The notes beneath the pieces were generated by a model, which saw nothing but the letters and a program-made list of their open reading frames with translations, was not told the DNA's origin and did no database searches. Below are positions 12,404-20,475 of a stretch of 64,000 nucleotides of DNA, one piece after another. How positions within the stretch are numbered: position 1 is the first letter of the stretch; each line of letters begins with the position of its first letter. Made by a program: the position numbers and the translations under genes. This stretch comes from Spirochaetia bacterium (GTDB lineage Bacteria > Spirochaetota > Spirochaetia > SZUA-6 > Bin103), in the NCBI GenBank assembly GCA_965203055.1, contig OZ241863.1:288001-352000 (forward strand), read 5' to 3'.

Positions 12404-15400
12404 GCCCGGTACTACATGCTGAAGTATCTCGACGGCGAGCCGGTATGCATCATCGACGTAGCCGGCGCCTGCGACCGGATGTTGTCCGGGTTGGGCGATT
12501 ACGACGTGGAGACCCTGCCGGCCGAAGTACCGGCGCTCGATGGTTCACCGACGCCGCCGCCGGCGCCGGCGCCCGCACCGGCCCCGCCGCAGTCGACCGT
12601 TCCGCCGGAGGTCGTGACCGGCGGCACAACCTTCGTGGTAGGAACGCAGGCGACGTTGGGCTCCAAAGCTGCCTGGAACACGCGCGGCGCGATCGTCGCC
12701 ACCGACAGCGGCGCCCTCACGGTCGCTGCCACGAAGACCGACCCGAATGGTCACTTGGGGACGATCACGAGCGAAGGCGGAGTGCTCACGATCACGGGCG
12801 CCAAGTCGACCTGGGACGCGGCTACCAGCCGCCACAATCCGATCAGGATCGATTTCACCGCTACGAATGCGGGCGGATCGACGGCAAGTTCCTGGATCCA
12901 AGTTATGGTTGACGGAGCTCCCGAAAGGGCGCCGGTAGTCCTCCCGACGGAATTCACAAAGAGAGCCATAGGAGTCAGTGGTGTTCTCATCCGCGATCTG
13001 GCGTCCTACTACAGAGACCCGGAAGGGGAGTCTGTCTCCGTCGTCGACGTGAGTGCGAGCCCTTCGCAATTAGGTATAGCCAGCATCGGCAGTGAAGGAC
13101 ACTTGGTCTTGACGCCAAATAACCCAGGCGCCATGACCATTACGTACTACGTAACGAGTACGTCCAACCCGTCCGGCCATGCCGCGCAGTACGCGCGGGA
13201 TACCGTTACCGTCACCATTACGCCGTGACGGCCTGGAAGTACTTCGAAAAAGAACGCATGACGCCCAAGGTTCTCGAGCCGGATCTTGAACTTCTCCCCA
13301 AGAGTACGTACTCATCCAGGCGTGGAAGAAGACCGCGTCCTACATCCGGTACCACAACTGGTATTCTGATACCCTTGAACTCGATTGGACCACGATCAAT
13401 CTGCCCCATTTCCTGCGGGAAATCACAGAGTACCTCGAGTCGCCCGATCAGTGGGAGAGCCATGCGTTGCGGATGGTGCCGGCACCGAAGTCTCAGCGCT
13501 GGCATGTGTCGCCTCAATCACACAAATGGGAGCCAAAGCCGGGCCAAGGCGCTGACGTGACACCGCTACGTCCACTCGCTCACGTCAACCTGCGGGACCA
13601 AGTAGTAGCTACTGCGCTTATGCTATGTCTTGCCAATCGAGTCGAGACCAAGCAGGGCGATCCAACGTGTTCGGTCAGTAAATCAGAGTGTCGTAAAGGC
13701 GTGATTTCTTACGGCAATCGTCTATTTTGCGATACAGTAGGAGGAGAGTTACATCACCGTTGGGGTTCTACGAAGCTCTATCGTTCATATTTTCAAGATT
13801 ATCAAGCATTCGTAGCCCGACCTTCCCTTGTTGTGGAAGGTATAGAGCGGGAGACCGGGAAGCCATCTTTCGTTGTGAAGTCGGACCTGAGTCAATTCTA
13901 CGATCGGGTCAGACCTCATCATTTGATGAGGTCTCTCCAAGATCTAGCGCGAGATTCGCGGGAACATGAGTTCTTCAATTTTGCCAAAAGAGTCCTAGAT
14001 TGGTGACTCTCGAGATGTCCAATCATATGCACAACGGAATGAAATAAATGGTTTCGACAGAGTATCACTTCCCCAGGGTCTGGTTTCGGCAGGTTCTTCG
14101 CCAACTTGGTGCTTCTGGAGTTTGATGAACGCGTTCGTAACAGCATCGGTACCGAAATAGACACCGGCGTTATCCTTGAGGACGCTTGTCGATACGTTGA
14201 CGACATACAGATCGTCGTGACGGCCGATCATGGCGCTGACAAATGCAAGGCCGTGGTCATCAGTTGGCTTCGGGGTCTACTGAACACCAACGCATATCGC
14301 CTTCTACTCTCGGAATCGAAGACGACCATTGCGGAGTTCGGCGATTCCAAACAACCTATAGTACGACAAAGTCTCCAAATGAAGCGGATTCAGTCGGGTG
14401 TATCGGGTGGATTTGATGCTGTCGCGGGTTTGGAGATTATGGATGCAGTGCAAGGACTGATGCGCTTACAGGACGTTTTGCGCCATAAATCGATCGGCGG
14501 TAAGTGGGAATTCTCCCCTGTGCCGGATGTCAAGGGCGAGACCGTGTGGCGGTTCTCAGCCGGCCGTTTTCGTATCACCTACCGTTCTATTCGGCCTCTC
14601 TTGGAAGCATCTGGATCTGTCGACCAGACTAACGAGAGCAGTAGCAAAGTGGTTCAATTAGAAAGAACGGCCGATACTCAAAAAGTCCTTGACGAGAATG
14701 CACGGACATTCGCGCTTACCCTGATTGACCGATGGGTTGAAGATCCATCGAATGTTCGATTGCTTCGAATCGGATTCGATATTTGCCCAGACGTAAAGGT
14801 TCTACGCTCAGTTCTTGAACTTCTCAGGCCGCTTACGGAGAAGGGAGGCCGTCGCGGGGGACCGCGGCGGGTCGCCTGGTATTGTCTTGCCGAGATACTA
14901 CGAGCAGGTGCGACGGAGACTGGACTTGTGGAAGACGATGAGTGCCTGCCAACGGACCTGGACCTTTGTCAATATCGTGTCGCACTCCGCGACGAGGCGG
15001 TGAGACTTATCCAGCTTCCGGCGGCGACCATACCGTGGTATCTTCGGCAGCAGGCTTTACTTTTCCTCGCGGTATTTGATGCCAAGTCAGCGCCTATTGT
15101 TCGTGTGGGTCGAAGTACGGAGACGAGGCATTACCGCCAAGCGATACTGTTTTTACGAGAAGATGCACCATCGATGACGACGGACGACTTCGTTATTCTT
15201 GCGATTCTGTCCCGGCGCACACTGACTCATGTAGAGAGGTCGGTCGAATTGGTGTTGCGTGGTCTGACGCGGATACGGAAGGAGGGTATAGCTATAAGGG
15301 ATCCTGCGTTCGTACGCGAGCTCGGGGAGACTGGCAGTCACTTCTTCGACGATCTGTCCGCTCGCGTCCGGGAAGACATATGCGTCTCTGAAAGGGATAT

Positions 15401-17088
15401 GGAACATGATTATCGGAGTCTTGCGAATATCGTATTGACCAAAGGGCCTGCTAATCCGCTCCGGAATGAGCTATCGATTCTGCGCTTCGCGGATGCGCTG
15501 CTGGAGGAACTTAAGGCGCTGTCGTGTTTCGTGATTACTCCAGGACAGGTGTGTTTGAAGCTGGACAATGGCAGCGACATTGCCGACATTGAGGACCTTA
15601 AAGTCTTGGCGAGTCGCGCGGCGTCGCGAGGTTCTCTGTATCTGCCGCCTGATTGGTGCGAGGTGCACGACCGTTGGCGATTTCAACTTGGATTTCTCCT
15701 GCGGTTCATCCTCACCGGAAAACCGGATTTTACAAGCATTGTACGGCCGAAATACTGGAAGGAGAGGATTGCGGCATATCGGCCGGCAAAGAGCCACTGG
15801 TATCAGCGAATTTACGGCATGTTCAGCGGCCATCAGGCATTCGGAGATGACTGGCTGCCGATCACCGGCTGGATGGAGCAGTTTCTGTTGGCGTTGCTGC
15901 GTTGGCCCGGCTGCCATAATCCCAAGGGATTCGAATGGGTAGATAATGGCGTTGCCGCCGCGCAGAAGAACGTCCGTATACGTATCAAGTTGCTTCAGGA
16001 GAAGGTGGGAAGTGCGACCGGAACTCTTCTGCTTCCCATGATCATTGGGAGGCCTACAACAGACGTTTCTGTTCGGACGTTGCGTGCGTGCGTCGTGCAG
16101 ACGGTCGTTCCAACGACAGATGATATCGATCCGTCGGATCTCAAGCTCAACAAACCAGGCATTCGTAGGAAGCACCGCAACCACTTGTCGGCCGCGCTTG
16201 CTGCCGTCAATCGGATGCTCTATCTACGTAGGACCCACATGCAGGACGACGGCCTCCTGGACTGGTTGATCCTGCCAGAACTGGCTGTTCACCCGAGCGA
16301 TGTTGCTACTCGTCTGGTTCCTTTTGCGCGCGCCCACAAGGCGTTGATTCTGACAGGATTGACCTACGAAGATCTGTTTCCGGGCAGGCCGCTGGTCAAT
16401 TCCGCCTTGTGGATCATCCCTGAGAGGTCAACTTATGGGCTTCAGATCCGAGTTAGACGCCAAGGCAAGGCGCATATTGCCCCTAGCGAGCAGCATTTCA
16501 ATGTGGGCGGCTTTCGACCCTGCCAGTGGCTGATCGGATTTCCGTGGTCTGAGTGTTCCGAGCCGATGTGGCTGACAGCATCGGTCTGCTACGACGCGAC
16601 GGACCTGGGGTTGGCCGCCGATCTCCGAAAGGAGTCTGATGTTTTTGTGATTCCAGCCCTCAACAAGGACGTCAAAACCTTCGATCAGATGGCACTGGCG
16701 CTGCATTATCACATGTTCCAGCTCGTTGTGGTCGTGAACAATGGTAAGTACGGAGGAAGCAATGCGTACTGGCCGAGCGATGACGCACATAAGAGGCAGA
16801 TTTTCCACTTGCACGGACAGCCGCAGGCGTCCATCGGCTTTTTTGAGATTGACTGTTCAGCGACAATCAAGATGAGAATGCAGCGACAATCAAGATGAGA
16901 ACGCGCGAGTAGGGCGGCGGCCTCCGACAGAGGAGGATCGGAGGGGCCGCCGGTGGCGGCGGGAGGGCGTAGCCCGACCGTAGCCGCCGGCGCGTGGGCG
17001 GCGCTCCGCGTGGGGGCTTCGCAGTCGGTGATCGTGGCCGGCCCGGCGTTGATAGGGTGCTCCGAGATTTCACCCGTAAGGAGCACCC

Positions 17089-19514: not shown

Positions 19515-19988
19515 CCGATGGCGTTGACCAACGCAGCACGCCAGCGCCGCTATCGCGCGCGCCGCAAGGCCGAGGCCCGCCAAGTACAGTACCGCAAGCC
19601 GCACGACCGCCGGTCGCGCCCGCAACGCTGGCAGGATGCGGTGCGCACGCTGCGCGACCTCCAGGGCGAGTACCAGGCTTGGCTCGACAACCTGCCCGAC
19701 CCGCTCCGCGAATCCGCGCTCGGCGCCAAGCTGGAGGCGATCTGCGAGCTTGATCTGGCTGACCTGGAGAGCATCGAGCCGCCGCTCGGCTACGGCCGCG
19801 ACTGACGGAACCGCCTGCGGCGAGCAGCGCAGCAGCAGCCGGTCAGCGGCCGTTACGTAACGCTGCTCAATAGCCGATGGGTGCGCACGCTGCGCGACCT
19901 CCGGGACGAGTACCAAGCTTCGCTCGACCACCTGCCCGACTCCCTCCGCTGGTCCGCGCTCGCTGCCAGCCGGGAGGCGATCTGCGAA
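19474..19988 (+). repeat. Internal duplication in the IS21: unit of about 47 bp with palindrome CGTTACGTAACG (19492-19503 and 19851-19862) plus a degenerate copy of the passenger ORF
   Basis: AGCAGCCGGTCAGCGG..CGTTACGTAACGCTGCTCAATAGCCGATGG occurs twice; 19881-19988 mirrors about 19641-19748. Confidence 0.85.
19518..19805 (+). CDS. Small IS21 passenger protein (basic N-terminus)
   Basis: 95-aa ORF, MALTNAARQRRYRARRK..., inside the IS ends. Confidence 0.7.
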   Translation: MALTNAARQRRYRARRKAEARQVQYRKPHDRRSRPQRWQDAVRTLRDLQGEYQAWLDNLPDPLRESALGAKLEAICELDLADLESIEPPLGYGRD

Positions 19989-20475
19989 TGGCGCCGGCGA
20001 CCGCCCGCCGGGAGTTGCTCCCGCGCTACCGTCCCGCCGCCACCAGCCGTTCGCAAGCGCCATCACGCCCTCCCGACCGGCGCCGATCTGACCGCTCTAA
20101 CGGGACCTCGACGGCGCCTCCTGCGCCGCCGCTTCTCGTGCTTGCCAACCCACGCCCGCTTGTGCCATCGTCCCGGCCGTTGCGACACCGATTTTTCTCA
20201 TCTTGATTGTCGCTCGGTTCTCATCCTGATTGTCGCGCTACAGATTGACGACATATCGAGGTTCCTGAAGCGCGGACTGCGCACTCGGCGGGGATGGAAG
20301 TATCCGCCGGCGGGGCGGAGGGGCGTGTAAGCTACCCCGCGATGGAGTGGTGAGACGCCCTCGGCGCTCCTGATAAAGCCCGGTTGGCCGGAGCGGCTTG
20401 GCCGGGTAGCCTAGCAAGGTCCGGCGGCGCGCTGCGGTGGCGGGGCCGGAGGGTGCCTGCTATGGTGGGCGCCCG

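Follow-up and report, generated by a model that had tools for sequence, protein, structure and literature searches.

What gene, if any, lies behind the broken reading frames in a low-GC stretch of a roughly 70%-GC spirochete whose DNA is found in sponge-derived sequencing runs? The window analyzed here is a stretch of 64,000 nucleotides (nt) of the Spirochaetia bacterium contig OZ241863.1 (assembly GCA_965203055.1, positions 288,001 to 352,000), and coordinates refer to it. In the list of open reading frames (ORFs) for 11500-22500, only fragments of the gene are visible on the plus strand: a frame of 179 amino acids (aa) at 13467-14006, a 930-aa frame at 14106-16898, and the tail of a 149-aa frame at 19881-20330. 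The original prediction held that these fragments conceal one defense gene, a fusion of a reverse transcriptase (RT) and a nitrilase recoverable from five pieces. All five pieces translate as claimed, with the quoted peptides and motifs present, and together they form one former gene of about 1,230 codons (13258-16853 plus 20250-20330, plus strand). Judged from its sequence, the locus is very probably a pseudogene of the single-gene defense-associated reverse transcriptase type 1 (DRT1; UG1, Drt1a) antiphage system, placed in a foreign, low-GC, variable island rich in insertion sequences (IS).

The first piece (13258-13298) holds the DRT1 start codon and first 13 codons (MTPKVLEPDLELL), where the intact homologue P0001 begins MTPEVLEPDLELLRQEYV. 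The second (13299-14003) encodes the N-terminal domain and the RT fingers and palm, with the QAWKKTASYIRYHNWYSD motif (QAWKK...HNWYSD) at 13317-13370 and RT motif A, DLSQFYD, at 13884-13904 (all motif coordinates were recomputed). The third (14005-14093) is a 29-codon piece with the RT motif LPQGLVSA (14068-14091) and is out of frame with both neighbors. The fourth (14094-16853) opens with FFAN (14094-14105) and comprises 920 codons for the remaining RT palm, including YVDD (14193-14204), the serine loop, alpha-helical repeats, and the nitrilase. The fifth (20250-20330) supplies the last 26 codons and the stop, that is, the C-terminal lid or tail; the expected terminal KYPPAG is encoded there as part of WKYPPAG (20295-20315), with its K at 20298-20300 and its A at 20310-20312. 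From 5' to 3', translation of the pieces leaves 2, 0, 2, 0, and 0 bases over. When P0001 was aligned to the window by tblastn, its residues 15-1217 fell on 13299-16889 and residues 1202-1230 on 20241-20327, in order.

The family to which this protein belonged was assessed with the PADLOC models, among which Drt1a (PDLC03745) was the best by a wide margin. The second piece matched profile positions 15-241 of 1176 (318.5 bits, E = 2.3e-95) and the fourth piece positions 272-1155 (854.8 bits, E = 2.8e-257). The profile gap at 241-272 is filled by the 29-codon middle piece, and the 13-codon first piece suits the 14 positions that precede 15, so that the pieces cover the profile co-linearly and in order, with no better RT class. 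When the 920-aa piece was used to search protein databases, 945 of 8,000 scored candidates matched at E ≤ 0.001, led by P0001 (1,230 aa, 97% identity to the query) and P0002 (1,235 aa, 85%). Both are uncharacterized proteins from public assemblies and resemble the window gene closely over about 1,222 aligned residues (86.7% identity for P0002; 96.9% for P0001, over 1,223 residues), but, unlike it, they are whole and show no break at any of its four lesion sites. The sole solved structure that was matched is 9yfd, "Defense-associated reverse transcriptase 1" (E = 5.2e-74 for the window piece), and P0001 aligned with it end to end (residues 6-1226 against 11-1224, E = 2.5e-123).

The same architecture occurs in other RT classes, and the gene might have belonged to UG5-large/DRT5 or UG29 instead of UG1/DRT1. 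UG1 proteins are described as 1,200 to 1,300 aa long, the RT being N-terminal and the C-N hydrolase (nitrilase) C-terminal, and UG5 and UG29 share this RT and C-N hydrolase layout (PMC9226505). The RT_UG5-nitrilase model did match the nitrilase part at E = 2.9e-21. However, this match reached 73.7 bits and was confined to positions 682-863, compared with 854.8 bits over 272-1155 for Drt1a, and RT_UG34, the next non-DRT1 family besides it, reached 33.1 bits. With a DRT1 structure as the only match in the Protein Data Bank (PDB), at full length via P0001, and with the DRT1-type K..PAG tail present, assignment to another RT-nitrilase class is highly improbable, and the predicted UG1/DRT1 identity is upheld.

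Compared with the characterized DRT1 (9yfd; PMC13275509), the window gene falls in the same length class and has the same co-linear arrangement of RT, helical repeats, and nitrilase, as well as the same YVDD, nitrilase Glu/Lys/Cys, and C-terminal K..PAG lid. Like that protein, it appears as a single-gene system. The transmembrane partner drt1b, which is present in about 18% of DRT1 loci and optional for membership (PMC13275509), was not found adjoining it, and PADLOC found no Drt1b among the 9 neighboring frames. The gene is spaced 29 nt from the upstream stop (13228) and 106 nt from the next host gene. Three differences stand against these likenesses. The window gene belongs to a distant subclade, since a second Drt1a model gives it 131.6 and 263.9 bits, compared with 318.5 and 854.8 bits for the first; its priming-serine loop aligns two residues out of register; and it is broken at four places and hence not a working member. 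Related loci, 54 of them in a genome collection, are spread over many phyla with best-segment identities of 31 to 70%, mostly 50 to 62%; among the homologues aligned, the lowest identity to the window gene is 32.3% (L057).

Conservation was assessed in an alignment of 64 full-length homologues, for which 60 of the 109 full-length hits, chosen by order of id, were combined with 4 translated loci. Conservation reaches 95% or more in 396 columns, and the window gene agrees with 389 of these; of the 137 invariant columns, it keeps 135. Of the seven missed columns, two fall at breaks (W in RWHPR and G in GFFAN), three reflect substitutions that P0001 also has, and two are specific to the window (L to M and H to R). 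In the RT domain, CRYVDDI aligns with the CRYVDDI of 9yfd that contains D324/D325, and a conserved serine loop with SGGF, a candidate priming site, is found at 14400-14417. In the nitrilase, the predicted triad codons at 16278, 16467, and 16587 do encode E, K, and C; Glu 16278 corresponds to E1017 and Cys 16587 to C1116 of 9yfd, and Lys 16467 lies in a conserved QGK. The Glu at 16488 is presumably the fourth residue of the nitrilase tetrad, seven residues after the Lys. In the tail, WK.PPAG is at least 95% conserved. With the C-terminal 120 aa of P0001 as the query, residues 1209-1224 of 9yfd were aligned, and ...GWKYPPAG stands opposite ...KTKTQPAG (1217-1224), with its K at K1219 and its A at A1223; the 26-aa tail alone gave no PDB match at E ≤ 10. 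All sequence-level DRT1 features open to testing thus appear to be present, except for exact alignment of the priming serine, and the frame is not intact.

Three of the breaks are deletions. At the first, one G is missing behind 13297 (CCGCC to CCCC), which shifts the frame 13 codons in. At the second, 14 bases are missing behind 14002 (site 14002-14005, plus strand) and five conserved codons are lost (RWHPR in P0001, which reads LDWRWHPRDSRD; (E)W-PE in 9yfd); the frame is shifted, and a TGA stop follows immediately in the old frame. The W of the lost stretch is at least 95% conserved in the 64 homologues. The original prediction took this break, at 14004, for a single-base shift, which it is not. 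At the third, one G is missing behind 14091 (GGG to GG), and the lost G of GFFAN is likewise at least 95% conserved.

Contigs of four public runs (X9, X11, X12, and X1) were compared with the window over 13150-17150. X9 contained 0.99 of the sampled words, and its 4,901-nt contig, at a depth of 29.4, covered 13150-16882 with 0 differences. X11, from a different study, contained 0.93 of the words, and its contigs spanned 13150-16698 at a depth of 2, also with 0 differences. In X12 (depth of 10.1) and X1 (depth of 4.8), 14 extra letters stood behind 14002 that X9 and X11 lacked, and both runs had an extra G behind 14091. X1 also had an extra G behind 13297, at a depth of 3.34, where X12 had no cover. 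With these letters restored, the frame reads LLRQEY, LDWRWHPRDSRD, and SAGFFAN, identical to P0001. Because runs of two separate studies, X9 and X11, reproduce the deletions, and because X12 and X1 contigs carry the missing bases, the three deletions (1, 14, and 1 bases) are real and not an artifact of a single assembly; the difference is allelic.

The original prediction had allowed that some of the shifts could be assembly errors, and in its strongest form this would leave the gene intact in the organism, apart perhaps from the IS described below. In its favor, each of two lesions out of the three amounts to one lost G in a short run, a context in which long-read errors occur, and X9 and the assembly may share a data set. 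However, the separately built contigs of X9, at a depth of 29.4, and X11 show all three lesions with 0 differences, one lesion spans 14 bases, and X12 and X1 show the alternative state cleanly. An intact gene hidden by sequencing or assembly errors is therefore very unlikely. Programmed frameshifting was also considered and rejected; stops lie directly after the breaks, and intact alleles simply have the missing bases.

The fourth break is the insertion of a 3,389-bp IS21-family element (16854-20242, plus strand). The element has TG...CA ends and 49-nt terminal inverted repeats (86% complementary) in which 23-nt units are doubled. Its genes are istA at 17089-18624, whose product matches Mu-transpos_C_2 (E = 1.3e-07), and istB at 18621-19514 (IstB_IS21, PF01695, E = 1.4e-64). 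It is flanked by a 7-bp target-site duplication, GATTGAC, with the left copy at 16847-16853 and the right copy at 20243-20249. Target duplications of IS21 elements measure 4 to 8 bp. Excision of 16854-20249, as had been proposed, is the right cut, although the element itself ends at 20242 and the remaining bases, 20243-20249, are the second copy of GATTGAC. With the element and one duplicate removed, the protein reads ...FFEIDDISRF..., compared with ...FFEIDDISSF in P0001. The insertion leaves the last 26 codons 3.4 kb away from the upstream part of the gene, and 14 IS-encoded residues replace them before a stop at 16896-16898. Three near-full copies of the element are present in the genome, including that in the window; the other two are 99% identical, and there are many fragments. 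The overlapping istA and istB, the TG...CA termini, the repeated terminal motifs, and the short target duplication are typical of the IS21 family, whereas about 0.7 kb of extra DNA after istB is not. This extra DNA (19515-20194) includes a duplicated unit of about 360 bp, with a 31-nt exact repeat at 19491 and 19850 and a 108-nt repeat at 86%, and a 95-aa frame (19518-19805) that matched no Pfam or PADLOC family.

The consequences of these breaks can be judged from the characterized DRT1, as described in PMC13275509. That enzyme performs untemplated DNA synthesis primed on S402, and the DNA adducts drive formation of tetramers and filaments; the RT-dead protein is monomeric and gives no defense. 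Protomers exchange their last 19 residues, which close the nitrilase pocket. Defense is abolished by C1116A, by deletion of the last 8 or 12 residues, and by K1219A or A1223F. By homology, the working ancestor of the window gene would have encoded about 1,230 aa, and the RT domain of this protein would have synthesized short DNA without a template, bound covalently to a serine of the protein itself. Such adducts would have led to the assembly of tetramers and filaments, with the nitrilase effector kept shut by the swapped C-terminal tail of the neighboring protomer until phage infection triggered abortive infection. The gene as it stands in this genome cannot yield such a protein. The 1-base, 14-base, and second 1-base deletions break the RT domain, with motif A and LPQG split from YVDD. 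The IS21 insertion, after the codons for ...FFEID, splits off the lid with its essential K and A, a loss predicted to be inactivating because tail deletion abolishes defense in the characterized DRT1. By the results of PMC13275509, either lesion class alone should inactivate the system.

The remnant might nevertheless be in use. The 930-aa frame, from a TTG at 14106 to the stop ending at 16898, would encode the helical repeats and nitrilase with half an RT and the 14-residue IS-encoded tail, and might have a new or reduced function. No stop interrupts its 930 codons, both YVDD and the nitrilase E, K, E, and C are retained, and shorter relatives of 980 to 1,129 aa are among the matches of the protein search. 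However, it lacks RT motif A (DLSQFYD), the LPQG motif, and the lid that completes the nitrilase site, all in a family whose characterized member is monomeric and inactive when RT-dead and loses defense upon tail deletion (PMC13275509). The shorter database entries may themselves be broken genes, given that 15 of 55 related loci are broken or partial. A functional remnant is thus a very unlikely alternative to the pseudogene.

Several observations weigh against the reading of the locus as a DRT1 pseudogene broken by three deletions and an IS, and they are gathered here. No Pfam family was found at E ≤ 0.01 in any of the three RT pieces, and the family assignment therefore rests on PADLOC and PDB homology. 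HMMER sets S402 of 9yfd opposite a Gly; the Ser of SGGF (14403-14405), with a conservation of at least 95%, is two residues off in the same structurally disordered loop. The mechanism is transferred from a distant homologue of another subclade, in the class of about 30% identity. As for the deletions, X9 is possibly the source sample of the assembly and hence not fully independent, X11 supports them at a depth of only 2, and the intact-allele calls of X1 depend on contigs with depths of 3 to 5. As for the IS junction, the X9 contig enters the element by only 29 letters, just under the 31-letter rule for bridging, and the X11 contigs stop short of it. X1 has no cover over 16500-16767 and hence gives no reading of the IS. 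In X12, the match of a 259-nt contig ends at 16853 and is followed by 51 letters unlike the IS, which would fit an IS-free allele; this was not counted as evidence.

How recently was the gene lost? The retention of 389 of 396 conserved columns, together with an X1 allele that carries the missing bases and differs by only 11 substitutions over the approximately 2.9 kb covered, agrees with the prediction of recent inactivation. Decay appears to be recent and polymorphic, with near-identical alleles carrying all three of the missing stretches in other samples. X12 is more distant from the window, with 107 differing places including the IS part. Of the X12 differences, 40 were listed for the codon count and 77 further ones were not; among those listed, 37 fall in coding pieces, 20 of them synonymous and 17 not, and the amino-acid changes are to P0001 residues. 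The synonymous share is above that of neutral drift and points to past purifying selection. Because synonymous change exceeds the neutral expectation, the gene was probably under constraint for most of its divergence from X12.

The gene is whole in 35 of the 55 related DRT1 loci and broken or partial within the contig in 15, and a contig end truncates it in the other 5; decay of DRT1 is therefore not unusual. The 15 broken or partial loci (L002, L012, L023, L035, L037, L040, L043, L047, L049-L052, L055, L056, and L058) show frame changes, stops, inserts of about 1.2 kb, and fragments, some of which are possibly long-read insertion or deletion errors. It is conceivable, although rather unlikely in our judgment, that the loss is not neutral rot but selected, with a host-associated (sponge-derived) population repeatedly shedding an abortive-infection gene because of its cost. 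The broken and whole alleles are about 0.4% apart and occur in different samples, and, with loci truncated by a contig end set aside, 15 of 50 related ones are broken or partial.

Where did the gene come from? It had been described as visibly AT-richer than its flanks and as horizontally acquired, and both descriptions agree with the data. GC content is 0.540 in the coding pieces, compared with 0.694 in the window outside 5749-20456, and GC at third codon positions (GC3) is 0.596, compared with 0.907 for the host gene that follows. Scanned in 500-nt windows, 13500-16499 has a GC of 0.50 to 0.56, compared with 0.68 to 0.76 in the high-GC flanks. No second DRT1 was found in the genome itself, a single 4.56-Mb contig in which the only other match is weak and nitrilase-like (31% identity). 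Among the 40 relatives searched, full-length DRT1 was found in one (G014, from another genus, at 59% identity and with an internal stop), and none of the 10 genomes of the same genus, 76 to 98% complete, contained a full-length copy. The site also differs in the sister species G010. There, window 1-5748 shows about 87% nucleotide identity with 7039-14669 of locus L071, and window 20457-22538 corresponds to 17606-19901 of L071; 14.7 kb lies between these syntenic blocks in the window, compared with 2.9 kb in G010. The G010 insert (GC, 0.57 to 0.59) carries an 805-aa gene with SIR2-like and STAND-NTPase regions (L071:14664-17081, minus strand). The presence of this low-GC SIR2-STAND insert at the same site indicates a variable defense hot spot, which is bordered by conserved genes at 4969-5835 and 20437-21921. 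No tRNA was found at the island borders, and the only one in 1-30000 is a tRNA-Asn at 24130-24203.

In the rest of the island, an ISL3 transposase is encoded at 6015-7265 and an IS256-type (Mutator) transposase at 11085-12338. The IS256-type element (11031-12400) is present in the genome in 7 full-length copies at 99 to 100% identity plus one split copy, and the ISL3 element (5950-7350) in 2 near-full copies plus fragments. These copies and those of IS21 indicate that insertion sequences have been recently active in this genome. A 505-aa frame at 7663-9180 (plus strand) matches only the N-terminal quarter of type IIG/DrmMI methyltransferase models (profile 42-313 of 1347). Downstream of it (9180-10780) lies about 1.6 kb of low-GC DNA (0.53 to 0.54) with no recognizable frame, and frames in the low-GC stretch 9284-11008 had no PADLOC or Pfam match. 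The 505-aa frame and the DNA that follows it look like a second decayed defense gene of the island. Just upstream of DRT1, a 270-aa frame with a Big_9 (bacterial Ig) domain (12416-13228, plus strand) begins right after the IS256-type element; nothing corresponds to it at the G010 site, and it may be an IS-truncated remnant.

A further observation concerns the related DRT1 loci and lies outside the finding for the window itself. In 14 of the 55 loci (L007, L008, L013, L014, L015, L017, L020, L021, L025, L027, L028, L037, L039, and L051; e.g., L013:9674-13552), a gene for about 1,300 aa lies 3' of DRT1 on the same strand, overlapping it or no more than about 120 nt from its stop, and three more loci have partial or differently placed copies. 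All four of the copies scanned matched the PADLOC candidate PDC-S68, a RecD-like SF1 helicase (E = 0, 1506 to 1603 bits). No full-length copy of this helicase was found in the genome of the window, and a text search found no paper naming "PDC-S68." In its available part, the UG/Abi survey (PMC9226505) lists a transmembrane protein as the only UG1 partner, and neither that part nor the excerpts of the DRT1 study (PMC13275509) mention a DRT1-helicase pairing. The latter study reports that the Dda helicase of phage T4 is required to trigger the characterized DRT1. Because a phage helicase triggers that system, a host helicase tied to DRT1 may deserve attention.

For annotation, the finding means that a locus for which a gene caller reports fragments only should be labeled a DRT1 (UG1) pseudogene interrupted by IS21; labels such as several hypothetical proteins or a working defense system would be wrong. 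The locus reveals no new mechanism, and the understanding of how DRT1 works is unchanged by it. It does offer a natural example in which the C-terminal lid region and the RT core are the knockout sites of this gene, and it illustrates that closely related populations carry both whole and broken alleles. If selected shedding were true, the locus would be a natural allelic series for the question of when DRT1 is worth keeping.

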